From: an uncultured virus (IMG/VR IMGVR_UViG_3300010344_001225)
Lineage: Duplodnaviria; Heunggongvirae; Uroviricota; Caudoviricetes
DNA length: 64,000 nt
IMG/VR virus record: IMGVR_UViG_3300010344_001225
Reading direction: 5' to 3' (one strand)
Under the pieces are notes generated by a model. The model did no database searches, had not been told where the DNA came from, and saw only the letters and a list, made by a program, of their open reading frames with translations. Below, in pieces: positions 1 through 44,195 of this stretch (within the stretch, counting starts at the first letter, position 1; every line of letters starts with the position of its first letter). Both the position numbers and the translations under genes were made by a program.

Positions 1-125
1 TTGTAGAGTTTAATGCGCTCTTCTTGACTTATTGTTGGGAATTTGTTGTACCTTATTAAAGCTTCATCAGACAAGCAGCCTACTATAACTTTCCCTCTTT
101 TTTTAGCCTCTTTTATGATATTGAG
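1..125 (-). pseudogene. Cytidylyltransferase-domain fragment of a second PEP mutase-type gene, lacking a start and running off the window edge
   Basis: Hand translation LNIIKEAKKRGKVIVGCLSDEALIRYNKFPTISQEERIKLY aligns with IAIIRKAQKLGKLIIGVLSDEAVASYKRFPLMPYEERKTVF in ORF 10316..12325. Confidence 0.75.
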
Positions 126-378
126 ATCGGCATACACATCTTATCAGCTTCATATGCTCTGTGATTTTCAAGAATTGTCATTGCTACTTTTTGCATAGCA
201 GGAAATGAACTTCTTGTTAAGTGATTAGCATTTACAATAACAGGAAACTGTTGATAATATTTTCGGAGAACCATAGATTCATCAAATCCATGCATCCAGC
301 AAATCTTGTGCGTATTTGGACTTGCTGATATCATCTTTGTAGGGATTCCATATTGAAATGCTATTTCAAGATCGTAAC
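113..378 (-). pseudogene. Chimeric remnant: glycosyltransferase internal fragment joined to a PEP mutase C-terminus
   Basis: YDLEIAFQYGIPTKMISASPNTHKICWMHGFD resembles GT4 N-domain; ANHLTRSSFPAMQKVAMTILENHRAYEADKMCM matches ANQLTRTGFPAMQNAAKLILENHRAKECDDVCM at the end of 10316..12325. Confidence 0.7.
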
Positions 379-494
379 CAAGCCTGTATGTAAGGTCAAA
401 AGAACGGCGGACGGCGGTATGTAGAAAAAAATAAAGCCCCAACCACTACATATTGTGGTCAGGGCTTTGGTCAAGACTGAATGTAAGGTCAAAA
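379..494. repeat. 23-bp imperfect direct repeat (379-401, 472-494) enclosing a hairpin; candidate recombination-site arm
   Basis: caagcctgtatgtaaggtcaaaa vs caagactgaatgtaaggtcaaaa (21/23); between them aaagccc...gggcttt stem at 433-468. Confidence 0.75.
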
Positions 495-746
495 ACACAT
501 TTTCGCCGGGGCATCTTTGACTGTGGGGTCATTTACACCCGTTAGTAAATAAACTCCCGCCTATGTTTCTGTGCCTTACTGTCACTATTCAATTTTTCCA
601 GTGTTTAAGCGGTTTTCCAGCCACCCCCGATTATCATTCTCAGAAGACTTTCAACCGAAAAATTCCGGAGCGATCTGTGGCTATAAAAATGGGGTGTCTG
701 CCCCATTTCAAAAACTGCTAAACTGCGGAACTGCGGAAATCCGCAG

Positions 747-998
747 TCATTTTTTCTTCTTTTCTGCCTTCTGTCGGAGCCAGTCTCGCAGCACAAATTC
801 TGCCTGCGAAGGATCATCGTCCGGCGAATTTCTGAAAACCCTCTCATGTGTCGGGATGTAAATTCCAGCACCCAGTTCCTCATCAGAGAGTTTACTCAAG
901 TCCACCGTTGGCGTGGCAGCTTGATTATCCGGCTCTTTTACCGATACACGGACATAGTGAGCCACGCGCAGTTTCTTAGATGTACGTTGTATTCTGAT
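747..998 (-). CDS. Small protein carrying only the N-terminal serine recombinase motif; start uncertain (ATC at 998 or ATG at 1037)
   Basis: KKLRVAHYVRVS..Q motif; GGAGGAGGT lies just upstream of an in-frame ATC. Confidence 0.4.
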   Translation of the reverse strand: MRIQRTSKKLRVAHYVRVSVKEPDNQAATPTVDLSKLSDEELGAGIYIPTHERVFRNSPDDDPSQAEFVLRDWLRQKAEKKKK

Positions 999-1238
999 CG
1001 CCTTACCTCCTCCCCGGTAACCTTGCAAGATGTACATCGGTGGTTGATCGCCTTACCGTCTTACCGTAAGATGTACGCTCATCGGTGTACACCTTAAACC
1101 ACAAGCGGTAACGTTGCAAGGCGTTCAATCGGTCTTGGTCATCTTACCGCCTTAAAGTAAGATGTCCGATCATCTTAAAATCGGAGCGGTAACCTTGCAA
1201 GATGTACACAGGAGCGTGTACTTCTTACCGCCTTACTT
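977..1238. repeat. Array of six inverted 9-bp box pairs (AAGATGTAC-like) with 91-bp higher-order period
   Basis: Pairs start at 977, 1027, 1068, 1118, 1159, 1199; five have a 10-bp spacer, one has none; spacing 50/41/50/41/40. Confidence 0.9.
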
Positions 1239-1450
1239 TTTAATTTCATTTCTCTCCGCTAAATGCTTTTTTCAGGGCTTAATTCAAAGGTATAAAACCT
1301 CGACCGCCTCAAAAAAAGCCGCTTAAATCGCAAATTTCGCGGTCAAAAAAAATCGGCACTCTTCTAAAAATTCCGCAATTTTCCTTCGAGCCAAAATCCA
1401 GTAAATAAACACCCGCGTTGCCACGTTTTCGACTCGACACTTGTGGTCGG

Positions 1451-1921
1451 TTAATCCTCTTCCGGAAATTCGTCATCATCGGGGAACTCATCAAAGTCCT
1501 CTGCTTCATCTTCCGCCGGACTGAGGACAAAGATTCTGTCTTTTGCCAGTCCTTCAAATTCAGAGAAATCGAACGTGATAACACTGTGTTCCGGAATGAA
1601 AGTGCCTTTTAGCCGATAGGTCTTATTGATATCCAGACCGACCGATCTCAGAACACCTTCCACAAACTGTTTACTGTGGATTCGGAACATGACATTGCTC
1701 GACAGAAAATTCTTCGGAACGGCAAAGGACAATTTCTGCTTTTCACTGCACGGCGCAATAGCGAGGCTGTCTCCTTCCTCGCTCAAAAACAATCCGATGA
1801 ACGGCGGCTCCCGTAGAAACCGAATCACGTCCTTGCCGATATTGATACACTTGTCTCCGCCTTTAAAGGATATTGTCGGTCTGTACGCTGCCGGTCTCTG
1901 AGATTGCTGTTCCTGCGTCAT
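1451..1921 (-). CDS. Recombinase-associated hypothetical protein, paralogous to the recombinase C-terminal domain
   Basis: RPTISF...INIGKDVIRFL...SLAIAPC similar to recombinase MPSMTL...IAFSKPFHKKM...SIAVRPC; acidic tail. Confidence 0.75.
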   Translation of the reverse strand: MTQEQQSQRPAAYRPTISFKGGDKCINIGKDVIRFLREPPFIGLFLSEEGDSLAIAPCSEKQKLSFAVPKNFLSSNVMFRIHSKQFVEGVLRSVGLDINKTYRLKGTFIPEHSVITFDFSEFEGLAKDRIFVLSPAEDEAEDFDEFPDDDEFPEED

Positions 1922-2681
1922 TGCTTTCTCCTTCCGCTTTTTCTGCTTCCGCCTTCGCCTTATCTTTCATGGCATCGGAATAAGTCTTTCCGAGACTGCT
2001 TGTGATATAGTCATCGAAAGGCTCATAATCCTGTGTCGGATGGGAAGCCATGTAGTCACTGTAGGTTTTTCCATAACGTTCTTTGTACTGATCCGGATAG
2101 TATTTTATCCGGCGTTTTTTTGTTTCGCCGGTCTTCGGGTCAATGTATTCTTCCGGCTTTGCGTCAAACATGACGGCCTCTTTTAAATCAAAACGAAGCC
2201 CAAGCCCCCTGTCTGTCATAACCAGTTGACCTATGGCTTTGAACCTTGCCTTTCTGTCCCAGTCCTCCATGATCTTGAAAATATCCTCGACAAAATCCGG
2301 TGAGGTCACATTTTTGTTTACCCACCGGTCATCTTTTATTCTGGCCCATGCTACAGAGGAACTCTCCTCTTCCTTACACATAACGACCAGAAGACTTTTC
2401 TTCTTTTCACTGAGCATCGGAAGGATGTACTCCACACCCTCAAACAGACGAATGCAAGCCATGTTGAAAGCAATCTGCCCGTACTTGATACTGGCGGCAG
2501 GTTTTTTGAGCATGGAGAAATAAGTCCCCGGCGGAACCTCGTAGCTTTCATATTGTTCGTATTCCAGCTGACTCCCCTGCTCCAGTTTTGTTTTGACCAG
2601 TTCCTGGATGAGATTAAATTCCTTCTCGGAGAACCCTCTGGGTGCTGATAGTTTCTTCTCGTCTGTTTCGTTCATATGCAT
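1863..2681 (-). CDS. Recombinase-associated hypothetical protein, paralogous to the recombinase C-terminal domain
   Basis: YEVPPGTYFSMLKKPAASIKYGQIAFN...SLLVVMC vs YQVPYGVYFLNNTMPSMTLSTKRIAFS...SIAVRPC. Confidence 0.8.
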   Translation of the reverse strand: MHMNETDEKKLSAPRGFSEKEFNLIQELVKTKLEQGSQLEYEQYESYEVPPGTYFSMLKKPAASIKYGQIAFNMACIRLFEGVEYILPMLSEKKKSLLVVMCKEEESSSVAWARIKDDRWVNKNVTSPDFVEDIFKIMEDWDRKARFKAIGQLVMTDRGLGLRFDLKEAVMFDAKPEEYIDPKTGETKKRRIKYYPDQYKERYGKTYSDYMASHPTQDYEPFDDYITSSLGKTYSDAMKDKAKAEAEKAEGESNDAGTAISETGSVQTDNIL

Positions 2682-2688
2682 TCTCCGT

Positions 2689-4644
2689 TCACATACTCAT
2701 GAGCAGGTCACTCAGCTCACTTTCGATTTCGTCTCTGGATGGGATAACGCCAATCAGCGGATTGACCATCTTTCTTCCTTTTATATATATGTCATTTTTA
2801 GACACACCCTCGATGATCCGATCCCGCCGTTGACGTTGCAGATAATTGAGACCGTGCTTGGAAAGTTGCCACTCTTCTGGGTAGGCAACATCACAGGCAT
2901 CATCCTTCAGATAGTCATTGCGATTGCAGGAAATGAAGTGCTTGACACTGTCCTCGTCCTGCTCGGTCATGCTTTCAAACAGTGCCTTTTTCTTTCCGAC
3001 CAGGATACGAGGCTCATCCAAGGAAAAGAACATAATCGGCACACCGTCTCTAACTTTCGTAATTCCTCTGAAACGGAATCGGAAGTCCTCCACCCATTCC
3101 ATCTCATCGTAAATCGCCGTGCAGAAAGCACTTGCAGGAAAACTCAACTTCACGTCCCCGTTCTCATTCACCAGTGGTATGGCGTTTAAGGAATCGGGGT
3201 CACAGGGTCTTACTGCGATGGATTTCAGTATCGGATGATAAAGAATTTCTACCGCCGTGCACTGATTCATCTTCTTATGAAACGGTTTAGAGAAAGCAAT
3301 CCGTTTTGTGGAGAGTGTCATGGACGGCATTGTATTATTCAGAAAATAAACACCGTAAGGCACTTGGTATCCGGCACAGCTCATGGATATGACCTTGCTG
3401 TGCTCTTCGCCGAAGAGAATATTTGCTTCATGAAGGATTTCTTCCAGTTCTTCATCGGAATAAACGCTCTCGCAGGAAGCAATAAAAAAGTTATAGGTGA
3501 TTCCCGGCAGCATCGGATTGATACTGACAAAGCCTTTGAGTGTGCCTTCATCAATAACAGATAGTTCCGGAACGCCGTCCAACCGACCACACGTTTGTGA
3601 CATCAGTAGTGCTGCTCTTGCGACTTCCGGCGTTACGATACCCTCATGATGGTTCGGTACAAAGGCACCTTCACGGATGCCTTCGTTCTTAGCAATTTTC
3701 TTCTTTTTGTAATCAAGGACTATGGTCTTTCTGGCTTCCAGATTACCGCAGCGACGCTCGTTCTCGATAATGGCACGAACCATCTGACTGTTCCAGTCGG
3801 TTCTGCCCTTTAAGGTCGGACGCTGTTTTTCTGTCAACACCTCGGCGATTTCACCGGATGTATGTCCGGCAAGATATGCCAGATAAATATATCTGACAGT
3901 CTGTGCCTCTTCCGGCTGAATAATCAGATCTCCGTCCTTGGTGTGTCTGTAACCCAAAAGATCAGATACCGGAAACTGATTTGTGAAAATGCGCTGGTCA
4001 TAGGAAAGAATCATTCGGCGGCTCTTGTTGCCGGATTCCCAATCAGCCAGCAATGCATGAAACCCAAGCGTCTGATCTGCGTCCTTATTTAATGTGAATA
4101 TGTTCTCCGTTTCAAAGTAGACTCCGATTGGCTTTTTCGGGTTCATGGTACGAAGCTCAGTGACATATTCGATACAGTCAGCAATATTACGGGCAAAACG
4201 AGAAACGCTGGCACAAATAATCATGTCGAACTTTCCCGCTTTGGCATCTACCATCATGCGTTTGAAATCTTCCCTATGTCGGGTTGAAGTGCCGGATTTA
4301 CCTTCGTCACTATACACTTCCGTCAGATTCCAGTTCGGCGTCTTGTCAATTTTATCTCTGTAATACAGTTCCTGATTTTCAATTGATGAGGTTTGGTTCA
4401 GGCTTTTGGTGCTGACACGGGTGTAGACCGATACATCTTTTTCCGTATCGTCCATTGGATTCGGGGTCGGTTTGGCATGTTTATAGATTATTCCTTCATA
4501 GGATTTGGCATTGCGAACACGAGCACGGATAGCTTCTCTTTCAGCTTCTTTCTCCTCGTGCTGTTTTTGCCAGTCTGATTCTTTGGGTTTTTCCTGAAGT
4601 TCAGCCTCATGTTTAATAATGTCATCCATGCCTGTTTCCCTCAT
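2689..4644 (-). CDS. Large serine recombinase with C-terminal extension
   Basis: YTRVST catalytic motif, DEGKSG, SVSRFARN, recombinase domain ending HHEGIV; no obvious zinc ribbon. Confidence 0.92.
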   Translation of the reverse strand: MRETGMDDIIKHEAELQEKPKESDWQKQHEEKEAEREAIRARVRNAKSYEGIIYKHAKPTPNPMDDTEKDVSVYTRVSTKSLNQTSSIENQELYYRDKIDKTPNWNLTEVYSDEGKSGTSTRHREDFKRMMVDAKAGKFDMIICASVSRFARNIADCIEYVTELRTMNPKKPIGVYFETENIFTLNKDADQTLGFHALLADWESGNKSRRMILSYDQRIFTNQFPVSDLLGYRHTKDGDLIIQPEEAQTVRYIYLAYLAGHTSGEIAEVLTEKQRPTLKGRTDWNSQMVRAIIENERRCGNLEARKTIVLDYKKKKIAKNEGIREGAFVPNHHEGIVTPEVARAALLMSQTCGRLDGVPELSVIDEGTLKGFVSINPMLPGITYNFFIASCESVYSDEELEEILHEANILFGEEHSKVISMSCAGYQVPYGVYFLNNTMPSMTLSTKRIAFSKPFHKKMNQCTAVEILYHPILKSIAVRPCDPDSLNAIPLVNENGDVKLSFPASAFCTAIYDEMEWVEDFRFRFRGITKVRDGVPIMFFSLDEPRILVGKKKALFESMTEQDEDSVKHFISCNRNDYLKDDACDVAYPEEWQLSKHGLNYLQRQRRDRIIEGVSKNDIYIKGRKMVNPLIGVIPSRDEIESELSDLLMSM

Positions 4645-5129
4645 TCTGTCTCTAAGATAATGTTTTCTTCTATTTTATATAGCCATTCCAGATAGCGATT
4701 TGGCTCCACGGAAATGTACTTCTTTGCTGCCGCCAGAAGCTCTTCCCTCTGTTGCTCCGCGTTCTCAATCGTATTGATATTGTAATCAGCGTCCTCAGTG
4801 ATAAGATCAATCCGGTTCGGCAGCGTGAACAGATAATGAACCACAAAGAAGAAGTCTTCTGTGTTTGCCGCAAGATATGCTTTGGTCTGAGTGGCGATGC
4901 AGTTGATTCGTTTCCTCTTGCAAGCACCAAGCAACTGAAGCATACCGGGGCGTTTCCAGATTTCCTTTCGTCCGGTAATATCGATGTATACATCTATAAG
5001 CTCCATGTTTGGAACAGCCTTAAATTTTTCCTTATAATATTCCTGGTGAAGCATGATAGCCTCTTCTCTTTTTCTCTCCCAGAGCTTTGCCAGCTTCACA
5101 TATCCGACCACCTGGTAATTCTCATTCAT
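4641..5129 (-). CDS. Resolvase catalytic-domain-like protein lacking the catalytic serine
   Basis: VVGYVKLA in place of YxRVS; ELIDVYID, RPGMLQLL, INCIATQT pattern follows the resolvase fold. Confidence 0.65.
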   Translation of the reverse strand: MNENYQVVGYVKLAKLWERKREEAIMLHQEYYKEKFKAVPNMELIDVYIDITGRKEIWKRPGMLQLLGACKRKRINCIATQTKAYLAANTEDFFFVVHYLFTLPNRIDLITEDADYNINTIENAEQQREELLAAAKKYISVEPNRYLEWLYKIEENIILETE

Positions 5130-5350
5130 TCGATTCCTCGTTTCCTAACATCTAATTTGAATCCGTGTCCCAGTTCCTTCAGCTCCAGTGCTTCAGCGAA
5201 CCGCATCATTTCCGTATATCGTGAATCGGATGTGTGATAAATCATTCGGTTGGATTTATTTCGGGACTCTTCCTCGGCAAGTTGTGCAACGGTTACAAGT
5301 CGCAGGCTCTCTAACGCATCTGCTGATAAAGTATTATTCTCTGTAATCAT
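5126..5350 (-). CDS. Small protein resembling the serine recombinase helix E
   Basis: LVTVAQLAEEESRNKSNRM vs FHALLADWESGNKSRRM in the 651-aa recombinase; 4-bp overlaps with both neighbours. Confidence 0.6.
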   Translation of the reverse strand: MITENNTLSADALESLRLVTVAQLAEEESRNKSNRMIYHTSDSRYTEMMRFAEALELKELGHGFKLDVRKRGIE

Positions 5351-6333
5351 GTGTTTGTTTCTCCTTTACCGTCCGGCAAAGACCAATACCACTGACCGTC
5401 TTTTCGGATGGATATAATTCCGAGTTCCTTTTTCGCATTCCGGATGGTACGGTCACTAAGATTCATCCCTTTCAGCGATTCAAAGATTGCATTTGCCGGA
5501 AGCCTACCCTCCTTCAGTCGCTCAGCAATCAGAAATGCAACAGCGCAGGTTTTATTCATAGGCTTATCCGGTTTGCTTTCTTCTACCACAACTTTTCTGA
5601 CAGCCTCGATCCACCGGAAGCCTTCGTTCCGGTTAAGTTCGTAGTATATGTCTGCGCCTTTGGGAGCGAGACTGTTCTTGACCTGCTTAACTCTTTTAAT
5701 ATCAGGATTCTCTGAATCGCTTTCCACCTGCAAAACGCTTCTTGCTGCGGCGACCACATCAATACTGCCAATGCCACGGTAAAGATCTTTTGTGCCCTCG
5801 TTCTTAGTGAAGTGGCTTATCAATATAATGGCACAATCATACATGGCCGCCCAAATGGAAAGCCGGTGCATGAGCTTACGAGCTCTGCTGGTCACAAAGA
5901 TATTAGAATCACTACCGATGTAACTCTGTACCGGATCAATAACCACCAGTTTTGGTTTTACCGTGACAATAGACTCTCTGATTCGTTCATCATCAAGGGT
6001 AAGATTTGCAGCTATTTCTTCATCTATAAAAGCAATGTTACTGCAATCAGCACCGAAGGATTCAAGTCTCGGCTTAATCGTATCCGCCACGCCATCTTCA
6101 GAACACTGGTACATGGATTGAAGCGGTTCTTTTATCTTTGTTCCATCTGGCAATTGTCCCCCTCTTGACAGCTCTGCAATCAGGTTCAGCGCCATTGTTG
6201 ATTTGCCGTCACCCGGATCTCCTTGAAGAAGTGTTATCTTCGCCAGCGGTATGTACGGATACCATATCCAGCGCACTTTTGCCGATTGAATCTGATCGTA
6301 GGTTTTAAGATAATCAAGGTCATTTTCAACCAT
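5347..6333 (-). CDS. AAA_25 / RepA-like P-loop ATPase
   Basis: VRWIWYPYIP, Walker A GDPGDGKS, LVVIDP, SHFTK, GIGSID..AAARSVL; AAGGAGG before ATG at 6333. Confidence 0.88.
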   Translation of the reverse strand: MVENDLDYLKTYDQIQSAKVRWIWYPYIPLAKITLLQGDPGDGKSTMALNLIAELSRGGQLPDGTKIKEPLQSMYQCSEDGVADTIKPRLESFGADCSNIAFIDEEIAANLTLDDERIRESIVTVKPKLVVIDPVQSYIGSDSNIFVTSRARKLMHRLSIWAAMYDCAIILISHFTKNEGTKDLYRGIGSIDVVAAARSVLQVESDSENPDIKRVKQVKNSLAPKGADIYYELNRNEGFRWIEAVRKVVVEESKPDKPMNKTCAVAFLIAERLKEGRLPANAIFESLKGMNLSDRTIRNAKKELGIISIRKDGQWYWSLPDGKGETNT

Positions 6334-6479
6334 ACCGCTTGTGCCTCCTTCTCTTGCAATTGCTGACAATCAGAGCAATTTTAATTACACCTATAATTAT
6401 AGTGACATGGTGGTTGAATACCATGGCCTACAGGCCATATTTATTTCAAAAACTTTACCTATACACCATATTTTTGAGT

Positions 6480-6531
6480 AAGATGTACCACTCGTCTAAG
6501 GGAAAAAGGTGATCGCCTTGCAGCCTTACTT
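6480..6531. promoter_or_regulatory. Copy of the array half-sites in the divergent intergenic region
   Basis: aagatgtac 6480-6488 and gatcgccttgcagccttactt 6511-6531, matching array arms, with a 22-bp spacer. Confidence 0.7.
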
Positions 6532-6650
6532 TCCATAACACATTTTGTTCATAGAAAAGCATCAAAAAATGAGTTGATAACTGTCCACCGTAGAGGTAAT
6601 ATCCCACATGCTAAGTGGGTCTCCGACTCTTATTTACGAGGAGGTTTCAT

Positions 6651-6995
6651 ATGGAGATAAACTACATTAAACTTGGAGAAAGAGTCCGATTCTTCCGGCT
6701 GCAAGAAAAGCTGTCGCAGGAAGAGTTGGCAGAAAAAGCGGCAATTGGTGTAAAGCACGTCAGTTTCATTGAAAACGGGAATACGAATCCCAGTGTTGAT
6801 GTACTTGCCAACATCGCCGCTTCTCTAAACGTCACTTTAGACCAGCTTCTCATCGACAGTCTGTCAGATGATTTGCAAAACAAAAAAGACCTGAATAAGC
6901 TACTTCTGGAATGCACTCCGGAAGCAGCCTCTATTCTGGTCGACAATTTTACGGAATTAAAAAAGGTACTCGAAAAGTACCAGATCAAGGAATAA
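6651..6995 (+). CDS. XRE-family HTH regulator
   Basis: LGERVRFFR...LSQEELAEKA...HVSFIENG; GAGGAGG RBS. Confidence 0.9.
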   Translation: MEINYIKLGERVRFFRLQEKLSQEELAEKAAIGVKHVSFIENGNTNPSVDVLANIAASLNVTLDQLLIDSLSDDLQNKKDLNKLLLECTPEAASILVDNFTELKKVLEKYQIKE

Positions 6996-6999
6996 GGTC

Positions 7000-7067
7000 A
7001 AAAAAGACCCGCTATAGCCCCAGAAGCATCCACACAATGGATGCGATCTGTGGTTATAACGGGTCTG
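7000..7067 (-). terminator. Long hairpin terminator between convergent xre and ppd
   Basis: agacccg...gcatcca-cacaa-tggatgc...cgggtct with an A run on the + strand side. Confidence 0.7.
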
Positions 7068-7083
7068 AACATTTATATTGAAA

Positions 7084-8205
7084 TTATAGCGTTTTCAGAT
7101 ACTCCATAAAGTTCTGTTTGTTTTCCAAGGCAGTAGTGGTTGGTCTTCCGAGATCATCTCTTGCACCGATGGAACATTTCACTTCAATGAGGCTGAGTTC
7201 GTTTCTCGCCTTTGCTGCTTCAAGTTCCTTGTCCAATGCTTCGAAAGAATCAACACATACCGCATTCGGATAGCCACAGGCTTTTGCAATTGCAACAAGA
7301 TCAATAGAAGCGGCTACTGTCGGCATTCCTCCGACTGTTTCATGGGCTCCGTTGTTAATCACAACATGAATCATATTCTTCGGCTTGTTTGCTCCAAGAA
7401 CAGCCATTGAACCCATATGCATCAAAACAGCACCGTCTCCATCAACACACCAGATTCTTGTGTCTGGTTTGTTGATAGCAACGCCTAGGGCTATAGAAGA
7501 ACTATGACCCATTGAACCGACAGTCAAAAAATCATATTTATGGCTCTGTCCGTTGGCAACTCTTGTTTCAAAAAGTTCACGGCTTGCCTTGCCTGTCGTG
7601 CTGACAATCGGATCTTCTCCACTTGCCTTTACAATATGCTGAATGATTTCTTCACGAACCATCGTGTTATCATTTGCATATTTAACTTTCTCATCATAGG
7701 ACAAGGCACCCTTGCGGATAACAAAAGCTACGTCTTTCCCGGAAGCAAGCACTTCACGGTAATCAGCCATCACTGCTTCTACTTCTTCATCTGTGGTTTC
7801 TTTTCCAATAGCAAAAGCCTTAATACCCATATCTTCGAGGAGTTTTACCGTGACTTCACCCTGATAGATATGCTGCGGTTCATCGTGAATTCCCGGTTCA
7901 CCTCTCCAACCGACGATGAAAACAACAGGGATTGCATACACTTTATCATTTAATAAGGAAGCAACAGGATTGATGATGTTTCCTTCCCCGCTGTTCTGCA
8001 TATAAACGACAGGAACCTTACCGGTTGCAAGATGATAACCGGCAGCTAATGCTGTGCAGTTACCTTCGTTTGCCGCTATGATGTGATGCTTCTGATCTAT
8101 GCCATAGGTATTCATTAAGTAATTACACAGAGCCTTCAGCTGTGAATCCGGAACACCGGTATAAAAATCAGAACCAATTATTCTTACTAAGCTTTCTACT
8201 TTCAT
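7084..8205 (-). CDS. ppd: Phosphonopyruvate decarboxylase
   Basis: FYTGVPDSQLK, AANEG, YMQNSGEGN, DEPQH, TPP motif GDGAVLMHMG..NN. Confidence 0.95.
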   Translation of the reverse strand: MKVESLVRIIGSDFYTGVPDSQLKALCNYLMNTYGIDQKHHIIAANEGNCTALAAGYHLATGKVPVVYMQNSGEGNIINPVASLLNDKVYAIPVVFIVGWRGEPGIHDEPQHIYQGEVTVKLLEDMGIKAFAIGKETTDEEVEAVMADYREVLASGKDVAFVIRKGALSYDEKVKYANDNTMVREEIIQHIVKASGEDPIVSTTGKASRELFETRVANGQSHKYDFLTVGSMGHSSSIALGVAINKPDTRIWCVDGDGAVLMHMGSMAVLGANKPKNMIHVVINNGAHETVGGMPTVAASIDLVAIAKACGYPNAVCVDSFEALDKELEAAKARNELSLIEVKCSIGARDDLGRPTTTALENKQNFMEYLKTL

Positions 8206-9269
8206 TATCTCACAATCCTCTCATACATCTCATGAAGCACTTTGCTTTCGAGAGCTACCGGGTTATTTTTCAGTCTCACCGGATTGACAGATTCAGTCAG
8301 CAGATTCACATCTGCTTCTTTGTTTCCAGAAGTCGGATACTCCATTTCAAGGTCGGTCATCAGCTGGGTAAAAGAATCAAGTGAAAACATTTCTGAAATA
8401 TCAGAAAGGGTGTTCTTCAGATACTCTGCCCCTCTGTTATCAATGCAATCCTCTGTATGGGCAAGCATATAGCCCCACACTTCCGGCATACAAACAGCAA
8501 CCGCGTGTCCGTGCGGAAGATTATACATTGAAGTAATCTTGTAACTCATCGCATGAGCTGCTGTTGTTGCAGTGATGTTGATAGCTCTTCCGGCGTAGTT
8601 AGCAGCTTCCATAATCTTTGCCGCCGCCTCATCAGTATTGTCAAAGATATATGCCCTCCAATGGTCAATGATAATCTGAACTGCTTTTTTGGAATAACCG
8701 ATGCTTTCATCGTTACTGTTGACCGACCACCAAGATTCAATTCCCTGGCAAAGAGCATCTAACATCGTACATTTTTTCTGATAAACAGGAAGAGTCTTCA
8801 GCGAGGACGGTTCGAGAACTGCAGTATCAGGAACAATAGACGGATGGGAAATTGACTGTTTCTTTCCTTCATAATAGATAACAGCGTGTCTGGTCGATTC
8901 ACTTCCAGTTCCTGCAGTTGTCGGAATAGCAATCAGTGGAATGCCGGTGTCCTGCTTCTCCTGTTCAAGATAGTTAATGCTCGAATCCATCTTGCAATAT
9001 AACTTGATGCATTTGGCTACATCAATCGTGCTTCCACCGCCGACTGCGACTATCATATTACACTCATTGTCATTGAAAATCTTTACGCCTTCGCAGACCT
9101 GCTCATAAAGGGGATTCGGTGTGAACTCCGAAAACTCAACATGAGGAATCGCATCAAACAAGGTTTTTATTTTCAAATAGTTATAGGCACGGTCACGCAC
9201 CAGAATGAATTTTTGATTCTTAATCTGATCTACTATTTCGTCTATACCATGTACTATTTTCTGTGCCAT
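8205..9269 (-). CDS. Phosphonoacetaldehyde reductase (iron-containing alcohol dehydrogenase family)
   Basis: GGGSTIDVAK, IPTTAGTGSE, TTAAHAMSY, PHGHAVA, RLKNNP; between pepM and ppd. Confidence 0.88.
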   Translation of the reverse strand: MAQKIVHGIDEIVDQIKNQKFILVRDRAYNYLKIKTLFDAIPHVEFSEFTPNPLYEQVCEGVKIFNDNECNMIVAVGGGSTIDVAKCIKLYCKMDSSINYLEQEKQDTGIPLIAIPTTAGTGSESTRHAVIYYEGKKQSISHPSIVPDTAVLEPSSLKTLPVYQKKCTMLDALCQGIESWWSVNSNDESIGYSKKAVQIIIDHWRAYIFDNTDEAAAKIMEAANYAGRAINITATTAAHAMSYKITSMYNLPHGHAVAVCMPEVWGYMLAHTEDCIDNRGAEYLKNTLSDISEMFSLDSFTQLMTDLEMEYPTSGNKEADVNLLTESVNPVRLKNNPVALESKVLHEMYERIVR

Positions 9270-9303
9270 CCTTACTCCTCCAGCCTAAATAGTCTTTTCG
9301 TGT

Positions 9304-10311
9304 TTATACTTTTTCAAGTATTGTCTTTTTGCCATTTAGTATTGGCAAATATTTATTGATAATCGGACATACAACATACCTATACGCAACGAGCACAATT
9401 ACAAGAAAAGGAATCAATATCAAATCGTAATAAATTATGCCAGACGCACCGATTTTTCCCATAATTGCTCCAAATACAGACACCAATGGATAGTGGGTAG
9501 CAACTATTACGACACTGTTATCACACAGGAATCGTGACCATTTCGTACTGGGAATAAAATGGCAAATCGCAAACATCATCACACTCCCGAATAATCCCGA
9601 TGCAATAAAAAATAAGTAATTTCCCAGTTCCATTCCATAAAACGAAACTTTACCATTTAATACCACACCGAAGACAAACCACAAAATTGATGAACATATT
9701 CCCATAACCACAACTTGCTTTTTACTCTTGAATATTTCAAGTGCATTCAGCATTTCTCCGATTCGATAAAAAGCAAAGGCAATGATCACTTTCTTAAATC
9801 CAAAATAATCAGGTATATTAACATTTATGTACAGTAAAAATCCGACTATCAATGCAATGCATATTTCCAACAGATACACCCAGTTTGTACTGCTCTTAAT
9901 TTGATCTGTTATCAGGATTAAAATCTCAATACAGAACAAACATATAAAAAACCAGATTGGATCATTATAGATAAGTCGTCCATATAAATATATAGCAGAA
10001 CTCCAGTTGATTTCATTATGCAAAACAATCGCTAAAGATGTTTCAATTAAAACTTCCCAAATGAGTGCTGGTAATAAAACTCGGAAAAACCTTTTCTTCA
10101 ACCAACTCAAATTTTTCGTTTTTCCTCTTGAAACAAATCCTGCCGCGATAAAAAACATGGGCATATGAAACGAGTATATGGCTCTATTTATACCCCCCCC
10201 GAAAGAAGTTCCATAGAGGAAGTGCCCGAGAACAACTAGGACAACACCTATTGCCTTTGCACTATCTAACCACATAACCCGCTCTGATTGACAAGTTTGC
10301 AGAGATTCCAT
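9304..10311 (-). CDS. Membrane O-acyltransferase (Acyl_transf_3)
   Basis: RVMWLDSAKAIGVVLVVLGH, IYSFHMPMFF, WFF; hydrophobic, visibly AT-rich. Confidence 0.9.
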   Translation of the reverse strand: MESLQTCQSERVMWLDSAKAIGVVLVVLGHFLYGTSFGGGINRAIYSFHMPMFFIAAGFVSRGKTKNLSWLKKRFFRVLLPALIWEVLIETSLAIVLHNEINWSSAIYLYGRLIYNDPIWFFICLFCIEILILITDQIKSSTNWVYLLEICIALIVGFLLYINVNIPDYFGFKKVIIAFAFYRIGEMLNALEIFKSKKQVVVMGICSSILWFVFGVVLNGKVSFYGMELGNYLFFIASGLFGSVMMFAICHFIPSTKWSRFLCDNSVVIVATHYPLVSVFGAIMGKIGASGIIYYDLILIPFLVIVLVAYRYVVCPIINKYLPILNGKKTILEKV

Positions 10312-10315
10312 TTCC

Positions 10316-12325
10316 TTATTCCTCCGGAATCAGTGTGATAATATCCTTGATGCTCATACAGACATCGTCACACTCTTTTGCTCTGTGGTTCTCAAGGATC
10401 AATTTAGCCGCATTCTGCATTGCTGGGAATCCGGTTCGGGTCAGCTGATTGGCATAAATAATGACATTGGCACCGAGTTCTTTCCATTCGTCCTCATATA
10501 CAGCATTGAAGGAAGTCGGCACAAGAACCACAGGCGTTGTCTGATCCTTTTTACGGAACTTGGCAATGAACTCTTTGATTTCGGACGGATCTTTCTTACG
10601 ACTGTGAATCATGATAGCATCAGCTCCGGCTTCCACAAACGCAAAAGCTCTGGTCAGAGCATCATCCATTCCCTGTTCAAGAATCAGGCTTTCAATACGA
10701 GCACAGATCATGAAGTCCTTTGTCTTTTGTGCAGCTTTACCGGCTCTGATCTTGGCACTGAAGTTTTCGATGCTATCCTGTGTCTGCTTGACTTCGTTAC
10801 CAAACAGACTGTTTTTCTTCAGACCGCACTTGTCCTCAATGATAATCATGGAAACACCCATACGCTCCAAGGTGCGAACAGTATATACGAAATGCTCTGT
10901 CAATCCGCCTGTGTCACCGTCAAAAATAATCGGTTTGGTCGTAACTTCCATAATGTCATCAATGGTGCGGAAACGGGAGGTCATATCGACAAGTTCGATA
11001 TCCGGCTTACCTTTTGCCGTAGAATCACAGAGAGAGGAAATCCACATAGCATCAAACTGATAGGTCTTTCCTTCCTGGAGAACCTTTGTCTTTTCAACAA
11101 TCAGACCGGTAATACCGCTGTGGGCTTCCATTGCCGTTACGGTTCCCTTCATATTGATAAGCTTTTTCAGTCTGCCACGACGGAAATCCGGCATCGAGAG
11201 CTGTGCTCTGGACTGCTTCTCTATTTCTTCATATTTATCGTTCTTGGAGTACGGAAACTCTACAAGCTGTCCACCGTATTCGGCAAGTATCGATACAACT
11301 TCATCTCTGATAGGCTTCTGGAATCCTTCTTTCCAATCGTCACCGTGAACCACATAAGTAGGTTTGAACTTATGAAGGTTTTCTGCGTAGCTGAGTTCTT
11401 TCTGCTCAACAACCTTTTCGATTCCGGCGATATTCTCAAACACCGTCTTTCTCTCCTCATACGGCATCAGCGGGAAACGCTTATAGGAAGCCACCGCTTC
11501 ATCGGAAAGCACACCGATGATCAGTTTGCCGAGCTTCTGGGCTTTTCTGATAATAGCGATGTGTCCGCTATGAACCATATCGGTTGAGAAGCACATATAA
11601 ACCGTGCGGTTTTCAATCTCATGCAGTCTGCCGGATACAACAGCCAGGTCTTCCGGCGTGTCAATTTCAGAGCAGAGACGATCCTTTACATCATAAGCAT
11701 AGATAGCACAGTCTTCGGAGATTTCGTTAAATGCAACCTCAGCATAGCATTTGCGTTTATCGTTCTCACAATACTCACAGATCTTATCAAGCCACTTGTT
11801 CCATTCCTTCTTGTTCAGCTTGTATAAAGCCTGTGATTCCATTGCATCGGTAAAGAATTCAACTCCGACCTTGTACACTCTGCCGTCATGAACAACAGAC
11901 TTGAAGTCCTTTTCCGGCAGTGCTATTGTAGATGAAACCTTCATGCAGCTGTCTTCAAACTCAAGAATATCATCAAGCACAGATTCTTCAAACACAAGAT
12001 CACCATGCATCAGGACAATATCCTCATCCCTAAGATAGTCTTTTGCACAGTAGATAGAATATATGTAATTTGTTTCCGCATAAAGCGGGTTGTTTACAAA
12101 GGTGAAATGCAAAGGTAGATTCAAAGAGTGACAGTAATTGACCAAAATCTCGTCAAAATAACCTGTGGTCATGACTACTTCTTCGATACCGGCTTTTGCC
12201 AATAAACGAAGCTGACGGCTCAAAATCGTATCTTTTGCGGAAATTTCAGTCATGCACTTCGGATGCTCCGAAGTAAGGACTCCCATACGGTGTCCAAGGC
12301 CTGAATTAAGAATCAATGCTTTCAT
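10316..12325 (-). CDS. pepM: Phosphoenolpyruvate mutase fused to NTP-transferase (PntC/LicC-like) and HxGH cytidylyltransferase domains
   Basis: N-term ILNSGLGHRMG..PKCM; DMVHSGH; PEP mutase signature EDKCGLKKNS, DGDTGG. Confidence 0.95.
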   Translation of the reverse strand: MKALILNSGLGHRMGVLTSEHPKCMTEISAKDTILSRQLRLLAKAGIEEVVMTTGYFDEILVNYCHSLNLPLHFTFVNNPLYAETNYIYSIYCAKDYLRDEDIVLMHGDLVFEESVLDDILEFEDSCMKVSSTIALPEKDFKSVVHDGRVYKVGVEFFTDAMESQALYKLNKKEWNKWLDKICEYCENDKRKCYAEVAFNEISEDCAIYAYDVKDRLCSEIDTPEDLAVVSGRLHEIENRTVYMCFSTDMVHSGHIAIIRKAQKLGKLIIGVLSDEAVASYKRFPLMPYEERKTVFENIAGIEKVVEQKELSYAENLHKFKPTYVVHGDDWKEGFQKPIRDEVVSILAEYGGQLVEFPYSKNDKYEEIEKQSRAQLSMPDFRRGRLKKLINMKGTVTAMEAHSGITGLIVEKTKVLQEGKTYQFDAMWISSLCDSTAKGKPDIELVDMTSRFRTIDDIMEVTTKPIIFDGDTGGLTEHFVYTVRTLERMGVSMIIIEDKCGLKKNSLFGNEVKQTQDSIENFSAKIRAGKAAQKTKDFMICARIESLILEQGMDDALTRAFAFVEAGADAIMIHSRKKDPSEIKEFIAKFRKKDQTTPVVLVPTSFNAVYEDEWKELGANVIIYANQLTRTGFPAMQNAAKLILENHRAKECDDVCMSIKDIITLIPEE

Positions 12326-12388
12326 CGATTTACGTCTCCTTAAATTATTGGATTACAAAACAGACCGTTAAATCACAACGGCCTGTAT

Positions 12389-12417
12389 AGTATAGCACAT
12401 AAAAGACGATAAATCAA
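12389..12417 (-). promoter_or_regulatory. SigA-type promoter of the phosphonate operon
   Basis: TTGATT-17 bp-TATACT with extended TG. Confidence 0.7.
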
Positions 12418-12447
12418 CCCTTTCATAGAAAATTTACAAATTTCCTC

Positions 12448-12476
12448 TTGAAAATCACCATAAGTTGATTTATAAT
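12448..12476 (+). promoter_or_regulatory. SigA-type promoter of xre-ispD with overlapping palindrome
   Basis: TTGAAA-17 bp-TATAAT; AAATCACC-ataa-GTTGATTT at 12452-12471. Confidence 0.75.
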
Positions 12477-12544
12477 ATATTCATCTCGGATTTTTCGGGA
12501 AAAGTCAATCCGGAATCGAGTATGATAAACGGACGGAGGCCAAT

Positions 12545-13483
12545 ATGGGAATCGGAACAAATATAAAGAAGAGAAGATTTGAACTTAAAATGTCACAGCA
12601 AGACCTGGCAACAGCAATGGGATACACATCAAAATCAACTATCGCAAAAATAGAATCCGGAGAAAACGGTGTGTCCTCAAAGAAACTCTCACTGTTTGCA
12701 AAGGCACTGAACACCACAGTAGAAGAGCTTGTGGCGGGAGCATCGGTTGCACCTATACCGTATGAAGCACCTGCCGTTTCAGATGGGCATAAAAACATAG
12801 CGGTCATTCTTGCCGGAGGCAAGTCAACTAGGAATCAGCAGAATATCCCAAACCAGTTTATTTCCGTTTTTGGAAAACCCATCATCATTTATTCAATGGA
12901 AGCATACCAAAAACATCCAGCTATCAGCGATATATATGTTGTATGTATTAAAGGTTGGGAAGATATTGTACATTCTTATGCACAACAATTCGGCATCACC
13001 AAATTAAAAAAAGTACTCCCATCCGGAGAAACGGGAATACTGTCGGTTAAAAGTGCTGTTGATTATTTGGATGGTATATGCAAAGAAAGCGATACTATAA
13101 TCTTTCAGGAATCAACAAGACCTTTAGTAACAGAAGAAAACATATCCCGGCTTCTTCTTGAATACTCAGAAAAAGGGTCAGCAGCAACTTGTGGCTCTAT
13201 GTCCGAGCATCTGCAATTCTTTGTCAAAGACAGTACAATAAGATATATAGATCGAAATTATCTGATTGAAACACAATCGCCTGAAGCTTATCGGTATGGA
13301 GATCTTGCTTCATTATTTAAAAAGGCAGAAAAGAACAAGCATAGATTTACTGAAAGCTGCTGCAGTATGTTTATGTTCAATCTTGGCATGAAACCTAACT
13401 TCTTTGAGGGTAACCTAAGTAATATCAAAATAATCCGAGCCGAAGATATTGCCCTTTTCACGGCATACATTAAGCAACAATAA
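12545..13483 (+). CDS. XRE HTH fused to a degenerate IspD/TarI cytidylyltransferase domain
   Basis: MSQQDLATAMGYTSKSTIAKIESG then AVILAGGKSTR...PNQF, QESTRP, QSPEAY, NIKII.AED. Confidence 0.88.
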   Translation: MGIGTNIKKRRFELKMSQQDLATAMGYTSKSTIAKIESGENGVSSKKLSLFAKALNTTVEELVAGASVAPIPYEAPAVSDGHKNIAVILAGGKSTRNQQNIPNQFISVFGKPIIIYSMEAYQKHPAISDIYVVCIKGWEDIVHSYAQQFGITKLKKVLPSGETGILSVKSAVDYLDGICKESDTIIFQESTRPLVTEENISRLLLEYSEKGSAATCGSMSEHLQFFVKDSTIRYIDRNYLIETQSPEAYRYGDLASLFKKAEKNKHRFTESCCSMFMFNLGMKPNFFEGNLSNIKIIRAEDIALFTAYIKQQ

Positions 13484-13496
13484 GGCAAAAAGAAAA

Positions 13497-13541
13497 GACC
13501 CAGCTTGCATTCCATCATTGGTGTGGATTGCAAGCTGGGTC
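13497..13541. terminator. Hairpin between convergent xre-ispD and recombinase genes
   Basis: gacccagcttgca...tgcaagctgggtc 13-bp perfect stem. Confidence 0.75.
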
Positions 13542-13550
13542 AAAATTCTT

Positions 13551-14777
13551 TTAAGCTGCATCTTCTATCTCAATCTCAATCCGTCCGTCATTAAAAAGCA
13601 CCACCTTTTTAATCTGTTCAAAAGTCCTCTCCGTGACCGCTTCCACACCATTCCACTTAATGCCCAAGTGTTCTGAAAGGGCTTTAAACAGGTCTTCCTC
13701 GGAAATCACATCGTTTTTGCAGCTCTTGCTGTCTTTCATTCTGCCTTTACATTTCCAGACTTTCTGCTGTTCTCCTCGATAGCAGATGGTTCTGCGGGTC
13801 AGTGGCATTCCGCAATCTCCGCAGAAAAGTTTACCGTGCATGAAGTGTTCCCTTGAAGATGAGTACACACCGTTTGCTTTTCTCTCTTTTTCCAGTTTGA
13901 GCCTTGCCTGAACGGTTTCCCACATCTCACGGCCAATGATGCCTTCGTGATCGTTTTCGATGTAGTAACTTGCGTATTCTCCACCCGGCACAGGCTTCTT
14001 TGTCCGATAATCGGTGTGCGGTTCTTTTTGAAGTCTACGGTCACCGACGTACATCTCATTGCTCAAAATATAATAGATGGTCGAGGGGTTATAAGAATTT
14101 TTGCTTCTCAGTCGCTTGGCTCCCCGTTTATTCAATAGCTTTATGATGTCCTTGACCGGCTTCCCGGCAGCGTACTCCGTGAAGACAAGCTTTGGAATCC
14201 ATGCCTGAGAATTAGGTTCCAACGTACCGTCCACTTCATCATAGCCAACGACTCGGTTGTTACCGATGTGCCTGATGCCCTGCTCTGCCAGCCTTTTGTA
14301 TGCCCACTTGACGTTATCGGAAATGGAGCGAGACTGTTCTTCCGCAACCGCTGACATGAAGTTAAAGACCACTTCGGCTTGAGCATCGAAGGAGGAAAGG
14401 TTCTCTTTTAAGAATTTGACCTCGACCACCGATGCTTTGAGCATGTGAACATACTCCTGAACTTCCGCACTGCTTCTGCCAAAACGGGAAATCGACTTGC
14501 AGAGGATGATGTCGATTTTGCCGTCCAGAGCATCCTGAATCATTCGCATGAACTCCGGACGCTTCTCCGCCATGAGACCCGTTTTCCCCTCATCCGCATA
14601 GATGCCCATGTACTCCCAGCCATTTATGCTTCGTATGTAGGTATCGAAAAACTCCTTCTGGGAAGTAAAGGATTCTTCCTGCTCTTCCTGCAGAGTACTG
14701 ACACGGACATAAGCCGCCACTTTTTTCTTGTGTTCTTGAAATGCTTTTGAAATTTTATTTATTTTCACGTTTCTCAC
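13551..14777 (-). CDS. Large serine recombinase (third of triplet)
   Basis: AAYVRVST, SISRFGRS, zinc ribbon CGDCG...WKC. Confidence 0.93.
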   Translation of the reverse strand: MRNVKINKISKAFQEHKKKVAAYVRVSTLQEEQEESFTSQKEFFDTYIRSINGWEYMGIYADEGKTGLMAEKRPEFMRMIQDALDGKIDIILCKSISRFGRSSAEVQEYVHMLKASVVEVKFLKENLSSFDAQAEVVFNFMSAVAEEQSRSISDNVKWAYKRLAEQGIRHIGNNRVVGYDEVDGTLEPNSQAWIPKLVFTEYAAGKPVKDIIKLLNKRGAKRLRSKNSYNPSTIYYILSNEMYVGDRRLQKEPHTDYRTKKPVPGGEYASYYIENDHEGIIGREMWETVQARLKLEKERKANGVYSSSREHFMHGKLFCGDCGMPLTRRTICYRGEQQKVWKCKGRMKDSKSCKNDVISEEDLFKALSEHLGIKWNGVEAVTERTFEQIKKVVLFNDGRIEIEIEDAA

Positions 14778-16356: not shown

Positions 16357-17306
16357 GATTTCTTGCTCCTTCCTCTTTTTCTGCCGGTCATCAACTTCTG
16401 GACATGTTCAAACTGTTCTCTGCTGATAATCGCCGGATGATGGTCTTCTAAGTAATACTGGTTCCTAATGCCGTTGTTTTTCACGGGCTTTCCGCTCAAA
16501 TAATCTGCTACCACTGTTTTGTTCGTCAAAATGTCGCCCACATAAGCAATGTTTCGAAGCATCCCGCACACCTTGCCGGAATACCACACAAATTCGCTTC
16601 CTTTTTCACGCTCAATCTCGTTCATCTTTTGAGCGACAGAGTAGGAAGTTCCGCCTGCTTCAATCATGTCAAACATCATGCGGACGTGTTCCGCTTCTTC
16701 CTTGTGGATGATCCATTTATGTCTTTCAACTTCCTGCGGGGCTTTTCGGTAGCCGTAGCAGGCTTTGTAGACCGGTTTTCCGATGGCGGCACTGGCATCC
16801 ACCGACCAGCGGATCGCCTGACTCTGCACGTTGCTTTGCTGTTGAGCGAAGCTTGCGAGAAGCTTCAACACCAGCCGTAGTCTTTCATCATTGCTTTTGA
16901 TCTGCTCTTTTTCAAAAATTACGTAGACACCGTTTTCGTGCAGGGTGTCCAAAAGTTTCTGACACTCGGAGGCATTTCGTGCGATTCGGGAAATGGATTT
17001 TGTGTAGATCACATCGACCTTTCCGTCCTTACAGTCCTGAATCAGCCTTTGAAGTTCCGGTCTGCTTTCCATGCGAAGTCCGGAAAGTCCGTGGTCTCCG
17101 TAAATGTCTACCAGCGTCAACATCGGATTCGTTTCAATAAATGTTTTGTAGTACGTCACCTGACTTTCAAAAGAAAAATCCTGTTCTTCCAACAAGGTAC
17201 TGACCCGGCAGTATGCCGCTGCCCGCAGTACCTTTTTCTTTTCGTTTTCGTCATCCGCTTTTACATTGTGCGTGGTGACGATGATCTGTTTTTTTACTCT
17301 TGCCAT
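16353..17306 (-). CDS. Serine recombinase (first of triplet, no zinc ribbon)
   Basis: AAYCRVST, SISRIARN, ends after HHPAIIS. Confidence 0.92.
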   Translation of the reverse strand: MARVKKQIIVTTHNVKADDENEKKKVLRAAAYCRVSTLLEEQDFSFESQVTYYKTFIETNPMLTLVDIYGDHGLSGLRMESRPELQRLIQDCKDGKVDVIYTKSISRIARNASECQKLLDTLHENGVYVIFEKEQIKSNDERLRLVLKLLASFAQQQSNVQSQAIRWSVDASAAIGKPVYKACYGYRKAPQEVERHKWIIHKEEAEHVRMMFDMIEAGGTSYSVAQKMNEIEREKGSEFVWYSGKVCGMLRNIAYVGDILTNKTVVADYLSGKPVKNNGIRNQYYLEDHHPAIISREQFEHVQKLMTGRKRGRSKKS

Positions 17307-39878: not shown

Positions 39879-39959
39879 TAAAAAGAGTCGCCTGTTAAGC
39901 GACTTTCTGTACTACAAGAGAAAGAGCCCAAAGGCTCGATCTCATATTTTTGTTATTGT

Positions 39960-40392: not shown

Positions 40393-40404
40393 ATGCCGCT
40401 CCTT

Positions 40405-44192: not shown

Positions 44193-44195
44193 GTT

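Follow-up and report, generated by a model that had tools for sequence, protein, structure and literature searches.

A candidate serine-recombinase cassette with free-standing paralogs of its own domains at the junction-proximal end of a prophage-bearing composite

A set of recombination genes lies near one end of a 64,000-nt stretch of DNA from an uncultured virus (IMG/VR IMGVR_UViG_3300010344_001225); this whole stretch is referred to as the window, and coordinates are positions in it. Six minus-strand genes within 1451–6369 are translationally coupled and follow one another in the order AAA_25 ATPase, p74, p162, a large serine recombinase of 651 aa, p272 and p156. ATGA overlaps join the first four genes, a 7-nt gap follows the recombinase gene, and p272 and p156 overlap by 59 nt. 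A divergent XRE/HTH_3 regulator precedes the operon, and the whole recombinase cassette, read on the minus strand, covers ~6.7 kb (378–7075, both ends approximate). A preliminary description of the DNA, made from the letters alone, had proposed a coupled operon of this content and order, and both were borne out. Most likely, the interval ~378–7075 constitutes a self-contained, exchangeable serine-recombinase cassette for integration and excision, which occupies the end of a larger mobile composite nearest the junction; its gene set is under purifying selection and occurs in many different neighbourhoods.

The recombinase gene (2689–4644, minus strand) encodes a Resolvase domain (Pfam PF00239, E = 1.5e-21) and, after helix E, a Recombinase domain (PF07508, E = 1.2e-15). 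The YTRVST motif is intact, and R76 and S78 are invariant in 30 aligned sequences. Zn_ribbon_recom (PF13408), which is matched by the three neighbouring integrases and by many of those flanking other loci, gives no match to this protein at E ≤ 0.01, and no conserved cysteine follows C157 in the same 30 sequences. The structural model has a mean predicted local distance difference test score (pLDDT) of 72, rising above 90 in a tail domain at residues 441–549; it contains no helix longer than ~15 residues after position 356 and no long helical hairpin of the coiled-coil type. Resemblance to solved serine recombinases and integrases is confined to residues ~62–356 (Z-scores of 16.1 for 3g13, 14.6 for TP901-1, 13.0 for SPbeta and 12.8 for phiC31), residues 219–354 scoring Z 9.2 against 4kis. 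The 651-aa protein is, on its motifs, a catalytically intact large serine recombinase in which, as modelled, a beta-rich domain replaces the zinc-ribbon/coiled-coil part.

The small proteins of the operon match no Pfam family (p74, p162, p272 and p156), and all four resemble parts of the recombinase. Residues 13–222 of p272 (1863–2681, minus strand) align with recombinase residues 391–614 (hhalign 98.7%, E = 3.9e-16), and the shorter p156 (1451–1921, minus strand) aligns with residues 446–556 (90.6%, E = 1.3e-6) and with p272 (95.4%). On these profile comparisons, the recombinase tail domain recurs as two free-standing proteins. The fold of this domain offers a hint only of a DNA-binding barrel: the core of the p272 model exceeds pLDDT 90, the best Foldseek matches are sliding clamps at E ~0.05 with none at E ≤ 0.001, and VIA-align gives MraZ (1n0e) as the best match (Z 3.9, root-mean-square deviation 4.1, 93 residues) and B3 domains at Z 2.7. 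The product of p162 (4641–5129, minus strand) corresponds to the catalytic domain, residues 67–206 (hhalign 94.5%, E = 7.8e-8), and lacks the catalytic serine, whose position is occupied by alanine in 40 of 40 aligned homologs, inside an invariant GYVKLAKL. The fourth small gene, p74 (5126–5350, minus strand), encodes a counterpart of the helix-E region (residues 179–238; 35% identity, BLASTP E = 3e-4). All these paralogies had been suggested in the preliminary description, and profile comparison (p272, p156, p162) and BLASTP (p74) upheld each of them. The first gene of the operon (5347–6369, minus strand) specifies the AAA_25 ATPase (PF13481, E = 1.5e-21), of the RepA/DnaB/RadA-like RecA fold, with a predicted C-terminal tail of DNA-binding character; it matches PHROG helicase/primase families, and residues 263–336 at its C-terminus give a separate match. 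Neither PADLOC, a PDB sequence search nor Atlas provides a name for the core proteins, PADLOC returning only XRE-type helix-turn-helix matches and one AAA match of 20 bits.

The recombinase family is large, 1301 of 8000 scored candidates being matches. Of the 120 matches listed, nearly all are full-length at an identity of at least 50%, and many lie on contigs of 4–8 kb. The hosts of 79 genome loci include Lachnospiraceae, Oscillospiraceae and other Clostridia, and further bins bear the labels Sphaerochaeta, Gastranaerophilales, Anaerovibrio, Bacteroides and Prevotella. In these genome loci, many of which are cut by contig ends, tblastn detects p162 in 69, p272 in 67, p156 in 61 and AAA_25 in 55, and p74 and a 96-aa open reading frame (ORF) of the window in none. 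Among 45 viral loci from IMG/VR, p162 and AAA_25 are each present in 40, p272 in 37, an XRE-like gene in 31 and p156 in 30. The synteny p162–recombinase–p272–p156 is thus kept in 61–69 of the 79 genome loci and 30–40 of the 45 viral loci, and the core genes have ratios of nonsynonymous to synonymous substitution (dN/dS) of 0.06–0.13. A conserved multi-component recombinase system, as had been supposed, therefore exists with respect to p162, p272 and p156, and not with respect to p74, which is lineage-specific: apart from the identical loci L080 and L081 it was encountered only in L083, L093 and L095, with a dN/dS of 0.19. Lack of conservation among the small genes, which the preliminary description had named as a reason for abandoning its proposal, is therefore removed as an objection.

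The regulator (6615–6995, plus strand; HTH_3, E = 4.7e-13) is likely to start at the ATG at 6652, behind GAGGAGG. Operator-like motifs, TAAGATGTAC and GATCGCCTTGCAGCCTTAC, occupy 6477–6535 between the XRE and AAA_25 genes, and the same words reappear in a repeat array at 978–1255. Across 962,633 nt of loci there are 67 copies of a family-wide word, AAGGNTGCA; 28 of them lie at most 1 kb upstream of the AAA_25 start and one within 1 kb after p156. The array itself consists of three ~69-nt copies and inverted pairs, with three GTACATCTTGCAAGGTTACCG-type words and GGTAAG words, and varies among relatives (joints 1038→1268 and 1236→1268). The palindrome array of the preliminary description is therefore present in the window; it is not a feature of the family, as arrays after p156 were scored in 7 of 52 loci vs 5 of 52 shuffles. 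The mini-ORF said to follow it exists as a 96-aa frame (747–1037, minus strand) and is doubtful as a gene: it has no match in Pfam, NCBIfam or PHROG, is restricted to the two close relatives L082 and L083, and shows a dN/dS of 0.37–0.52 as against the much lower values of the core genes. An Rfam scan returned nothing at the gathering level (sar RNA, 29.6 bits vs 43), and a promoter scan performed at chance level (10 found vs 10.1 expected).

The neighbourhoods of the cassette were surveyed through 271 flanking ORFs of 61 dereplicated genome loci, 18 near-duplicate loci having been dropped, and, for 16 loci, through a further 61 ORFs on the upstream side of the integrases. One or more canonical zinc-ribbon serine integrases lie upstream of the cassette in 18 of the 61 loci, and tyrosine integrases, often accompanied by DUF4379, in nine; elsewhere the neighbours are host genes. 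Of the 45 viral loci, 39 have extra serine integrases directly upstream and encoded on the same strand, and in this collection the cassette lies within a few kilobases of the record end. Runs of three to four integrases are found in L001, L008, L019, L066 and L074, and holin, lysin or tail genes precede the integrases in L012, L016, L017 and L020. The interval between integrases and XRE carries cargo, mostly defence or toxin–antitoxin genes: Fic, ToxN, AbiEii, AAA_14/DUF4143, RloB/AAA_21, Schlafen-type and MazF genes and a restriction enzyme. On the other side, just past p156, lies a cut comM/Mg-chelatase gene in L016 and L020 (and, by reading, in L023), and cut glycan genes occupy this place elsewhere: Bac_transf in L005, L025 and L057, Polysacc_synt in L066 and DegT in L008. 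GenBank genomes of Ca. Heliusvirales that are labelled complete harbour a homolog of 34–38% identity and a p272-like gene beside an integrase, an invertase and an endolysin; MT838295 (5441 nt) is a linear scaffold without a terminal repeat. A gene of ~250 aa for a calcineurin-like phosphoesterase (Metallophos) follows p156 in six to seven loci, including L013, L026, L027, L036, L038 and L047, and a gene of this type is also found at 61084–61827, at the far prophage end of the window. The directionality factor of Bxb1, gp47, is reportedly phosphoesterase-like, which may bear on the Metallophos genes near p156.

Along the minus strand of the window, a prophage is succeeded by an integrase triplet, an HTH_3–IspD fusion with a phosphonate operon, the XRE gene, the cassette and broken glycan genes. 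The prophage (17727–61083, minus strand) encodes lysin, tail, head, terminase and replication functions, the last including a polymerase and a primase, as well as a pair of repressor genes of the ImmA type. Positions 28668–61083 coincide with the IMG/VR provirus record G001. The prophage interval 38276–46735 holds two N6/N4 DNA methylases, one of them fused to ParB_N, a further methyltransferase-like gene and an S-adenosylmethionine synthetase. Directly after the lysin come three overlapping serine integrase genes (13551–17306, minus strand; 408, 533 and 317 aa), all with an intact YxRVST motif and with homologs in the same order in L008. The HTH_3–IspD fusion recognized by family scan (12545–13483, plus strand) has an equivalent in the integrases-to-XRE interval of L008, where an HTH_3–UDP-glucose dehydrogenase fusion occupies 6093–7580; such fusions of HTH_3 with sugar-nucleotide enzymes may be repressors that sense a nucleotide sugar.

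Between the fusion gene and the XRE gene, the intact phosphonate operon (7084–12325, minus strand) comprises, according to Pfam, a fusion of NTP-transferase, cytidylyltransferase and phosphoenolpyruvate (PEP) mutase, an acyltransferase_3, an Fe-ADH and a thiamine pyrophosphate enzyme of the phosphonopyruvate decarboxylase type. As this operon is downstream of the triplet and the prophage, it sits in the cargo slot of the composite. Broken glycan/phosphonate genes lie outside the cassette at 1–377 (minus strand), as identified by family scans and by comparison with the intact fusion gene at 10316–12325: a 40-residue C-terminal remnant of a PEP mutase (125–241) is 64% identical to it and a cytidylyltransferase piece (3–119) 49% identical. 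The divergent regulator, the broken genes on the left and the intact operon on the right are present as they had been described. Glycan and phosphonate genes do adjoin the cassette, in keeping with the capsule-locus setting first given to it, an account that had overlooked the prophage and the three tandem integrases upstream. Two further assemblies carry the identical arrangement at 100% identity, L081 corresponding to positions 323–8690 and L080 to 2251–14644. The recombinase operon is, on this layout, the terminal module of a larger mobile composite made up of prophage, integrase triplet, cargo and cassette.

Whether the module is also exchangeable, able to stand alone while mostly riding on integrase-bearing elements, is a proposition with about an even chance of being correct. 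One line of evidence for it comes from L014 and L015, which have in common only 4.26 kb, at 88–91% identity, containing XRE, an AAA_25 remnant, p162, recombinase, p272 and p156. The common stretch begins ~55 nt past the XRE stop codon and ends at the 3' end of p156, and the flanks are unrelated, those of L014 being the host genes guaA and AraC/Fe-ADH. A search for an empty site among 201 family relatives of the L014 genome was uninformative: the closest, G096, shares the AraC side at 72–75% identity, with neither guaA nor the cassette adjoining. The cassette is moreover a mosaic. Between the window and L083 the synonymous divergence (dS) is 0.21 for p272, 0.81 for the recombinase and 2.4 (saturated) for AAA_25, and it is saturated for p162; L020 and L023 differ only in XRE and AAA_25, which have been swapped.

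Evidence on the ends of the cassette derives in part from four sequencing runs, compared as contigs. In run X1, from the source sample, contig depth is 17–18 over 126–377 vs 7.1 over 348–8362, and an alternative continuation follows position 377, its 30 letters being absent from the window. A relative in run X8 matches 376–742 and differs before 376. The depth step and the divergence therefore place a break between mobile and host DNA at 377/378. Just inside it, a terminator-like hairpin (433–468, minus strand; 14-pair stem and T run) is flanked by two copies of a 23-nt direct repeat (379–401 and 472–494, 21/23 identical). At the high end, a long hairpin (7004–7075) between XRE and the phosphonopyruvate decarboxylase gene is kept in L083 and L094; L094 shares the hairpin and the 3' end of XRE up to ~7062–7075 and then differs. 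A block of ~70 nt common to the window (1279–1345) and L094 lies in the latter ~60 nt from the XRE-side hairpin, and the same adjacency appears in run X13, where a contig joins 7032 to 1279. This is what a circle or tandem form would give. In L094, however, the genes on the far side of the block are others than p156.

Several observations accompany these comparisons. At L094:3640–4216 XRE is followed directly by the recombinase, without AAA_25 or p162, and the 70-nt block precedes; the genes upstream include RloB/AAA_21. Run X13 (2024, another study) contains contigs over the decarboxylase and XRE (7315–7768 and 6603–6884) that are 99.3–100% identical to the window, and contigs over the recombinase operon (1590–6117) that are only 90–94% identical, a contrast which suggests that the XRE–phosphonate side was recently exchanged independently of the operon. 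A contig of run X1 with a depth of 11.9 passes from 231 straight to 7402, leaving out 7170 nt, and further on from 7422 to 7489, with sides of 21 nt each; L083 also begins at the equivalent of 7402. The 231→7402 joint is not trusted as a deletion on sides of this length and may belong to the phosphonate locus of another strain. An 11-mer, TAAGGTCAAAA, was considered as an attachment (att) core. It is present at 391–401, 484–494 and 6993–7003 (three copies per 64 kb vs 0.05 expected), the first two copies falling inside the 23-nt repeat around the terminator hairpin and the third, a candidate core only (plus strand), overlapping the XRE stop codon. It was rejected in that role: an 11- to 12-mer common to both end regions is not rare in a fair search space, and L083 has no copy at the XRE end.

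A number of results weigh against the reading as a self-contained, exchangeable cassette. Among the contigs of the four runs, neither a raw-read circle nor an empty site was seen, and the X13 joint is carried by a single contig, one side of which measures 32 nt. No att sites were identified, the presence of TAAGGTCAAAA at both ends not being statistically safe, and end repeats were found in none of ten IMG/VR records checked (four proviruses, six linear) and at the ends of none of L055, L056, L047, L020 and L050. AAA_25 is absent or deleted in L014, L094 and L143, so the core can do without replication. No confident match emerged for the fold shared by the paralogs (MraZ at Z 3.9, Foldseek at E ~0.05), which bears on their presumed DNA binding.

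The most serious alternative, tentative and less probable than an exchangeable cassette, is that the operon is a fixed part of the lysogeny or integration region of its carrier, a fourth recombinase system that works with the triplet, for example in a second attachment specificity or in directionality control, and that moves only with the carrier. The same-strand serine integrases upstream of most viral and some genome loci, the phage lysis and tail genes before them, and the preservation in L008 of the window's order of three integrase types all agree with this. An 11.2-kb unit shared by L055, L056 and L059 moves as two integrases plus the cassette; together with the integrases directly upstream in 39 of the 45 viral loci, it means that the cassette may not move alone. 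The 'complete' Ca. Heliusvirales genomes with a homolog beside their own integrase, invertase and endolysin point the same way, as does the finding that in L016 and L020 no att-like duplicate separates the integrases from XRE. According to the available passages of PMC4701971, moreover, coding sequences may intervene between a published triplet and its target gene. Four features are difficult to accommodate in a fixed region: the cassette stands alone between host genes in L014/L015, tyrosine integrases take the upstream place in some loci, the identity of the cassette is mosaic, unlike that of its flanks, and it possesses a regulator and a helicase of its own.

An unlikely alternative is a satellite-like, phage-dependent hitchhiker that inserts at the prophage–host junction, is derepressed on induction, replicates through AAA_25 and leaves with or inside the phage genome. 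The cassette always sits at the record or junction end of proviruses, 1–5 kb from the end in most 'reversed 1-N' loci; a divergent repressor and a helicase-type ATPase are present, as in chromosomal islands, and defence cargo is nearby (Fic, ToxN, AbiE, RloB, AAA_14). An iteron-like array exists only in the lineage of the window. Against this reading, no packaging, capsid-remodelling or primase genes were matched in the cassette (Pfam, PHROG), PADLOC gives no match for the core proteins, and the cassette also occurs without any phage, in L014 and L055.

The role advanced in the preliminary description, a dedicated machine for integrating, excising or swapping surface-polysaccharide cassettes, has become improbable. 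The window does lie in a glycan/phosphonate locus with a broken older copy of PEP mutase, Bac_transf genes are cut at three independent loci and Polysacc_synt and DegT genes in L066 and L008, and sugar-nucleotide enzymes fused to HTH are found in L008 and the window. Flanking genes do vary between loci; only 8 of 61, however, have glycan genes in the immediate neighbourhood (nearest ORFs), and no viral locus of the 45 holds PEP mutase or the decarboxylase. Elsewhere comM is cut (L016, L020) or guaA lies alongside (L014), and other cargo is defence or toxin–antitoxin. A real link to glycan loci therefore exists, but it is partial and not exclusive; some lineages seem to have chosen glycan genes as targets, as others chose comM and further genes, and the operon looks like a general mobility cassette situated at the ends of prophages and other elements rather than a machine specific to capsule swapping. 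That the operon is only a functionless, decaying leftover of duplicated integrase genes is highly improbable: its pieces do resemble fragments of one recombinase, AAA_25 is deleted in L014 and the recombinase is cut in L067 and L095, but all core genes are under strong purifying selection, residues are invariant across 30–41 sequences at ~50% identity, and gene order is conserved across phyla-level bins. The recombinase gene of L067 (10001–11566) breaks off at residue 313, after which the sequence runs in the opposite direction to that of L071 and L074. The gene of L095 (747–4358) breaks off at residue 113, and two canonical integrases come next on the opposite strand; in-gene rearrangements or misassemblies are possible in both.

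The cassette recalls several characterized systems without coinciding with any of them. The staphylococcal cassette chromosome (SCC), to which the preliminary description likened it through SCCmec, has a core composed of a helicase operon (Cch or CCPol-MP-Cch2), CcrAB or CcrC and three small ORFs, and replication after excision has been proposed for it, according to the passages available from PMC7581432. The likeness holds as far as layout, matching the SCC pattern in those passages: a helicase-type gene upstream of a large serine recombinase and small conserved ORFs downstream. Both are cargo-carrying integrative elements devoid of conjugation genes, no relaxase, coupling protein or type IV secretion system (T4SS) having been matched by Pfam, NCBIfam or PHROG in the cassette, and no relaxase or T4SS family in any ORF scanned across the window, as the preliminary description had stated. 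The protein families, on the other hand, are not homologous. The helicase here is of the AAA_25 type with a RecA fold, whereas that of SCC is the MCM-like Cch/Cch2; the recombinase scores 77 (CcrB), 52 and 45 bits with the NCBIfam Ccr models vs cut-offs of 900, 900 and 700; and the small ORFs are paralogs of the recombinase's own domains. The hosts are anaerobic Clostridia-type bacteria, the targets comM, sugar transferase genes and others, and the cassette usually rides on prophages. In short, the cassette resembles the SCC core in its arrangement without sharing homology with it.

Streptococcal integrative and conjugative elements (ICEs) of the Firmicutes possess serine-integrase triplets in one orientation towards the disrupted target, with intervening coding sequences in some cases (Ambroset et al. 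2016, PMC4701971, as far as its available passages go). The three tandem integrases at 13551–17306, which share one orientation, are alike in this respect. The cassette differs as a set of coding sequences placed between triplet and junction, with its own fourth, atypical recombinase; the carrier here is a prophage, and the cassette does not figure in the passages of that description. With the phage integrases of phiC31, Bxb1, SPbeta and TP901-1 the modelled recombinase shares the catalytic domain, helix E and the recombinase domain (Z 12.7–14.6, residues 62–356), whereas it lacks a zinc-ribbon match, conserved cysteines and a modelled coiled-coil hairpin, and its accessory proteins are domain paralogs rather than known types of directionality factor. 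The clostridial elements Tn4451 and Tn4453 are ~6 kb long, encode the large serine recombinase TnpX and form a circular intermediate. The catalytic domain of TnpX matches that of the 651-aa protein at Z 9.5; the latter has no DUF4368, and the cassette has no Mob/relaxase gene and a different set of accessory genes. No description of the cassette was found in the literature listings, abstracts and passages covered, and the available passages of the Heliusvirales paper do not mention recombinase, integrase or serine. IME_Rho_tet and elements of the Faecalibacterium mobilome were considered as a match and set aside as different elements, on the parts of those reports available.

A working scheme for the cassette can be outlined. 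XRE would hold the operon off, and on derepression the recombinase would cut and rejoin the ends of the cassette, or ends that it has in common with its carrier. The domain paralogs would act as non-catalytic partners setting assembly or direction, p162 and p74 possibly at the dimer or tetramer interface and p272 and p156 at DNA sites, for instance the array and the AAGGNTGCA clusters. The AAA_25 protein might unwind and replicate the excised circle, as proposed for SCC elements, and the phosphonate operon would be cargo that alters the surface glycans of the lysogen. A broader and more speculative proposal is that the family represents a new class of large serine recombinase, dispensing with the zinc-ribbon/coiled-coil logic and governed by free-standing mimics of its own domains: the Ser-less catalytic decoy p162, the helix-E protein p74 in some lineages, and p272 and p156 as two copies of the DNA-binding tail. 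With a helicase of its own, it might form a minimal replicating cassette that plugs into the attachment junctions of prophages and integrase-bearing elements and travels across Clostridia-type bacteria of gut and digester.

Interest in the system centres on what the domain paralogs do and on whether the cassette moves alone. The recombinase family is very common in Firmicutes of gut, rumen and digester and in their prophages, yet it is nameless in the sources examined, and the tail domain that it shares with p272 and p156 belongs to no Pfam family. Control of assembly or direction by the paralogs would, if real, be a new mode of regulating serine recombinases, enzymes that are widely used as tools in genome engineering. 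With a phosphonate operon for surface decoration in its cargo slot, the prophage composite may be an instance of lysogenic conversion that acts on surface glycans, and the cassette would explain the unannotated block at the ends of an abundant lineage of gut phages, that of the Ca. Heliusvirales-type genomes.

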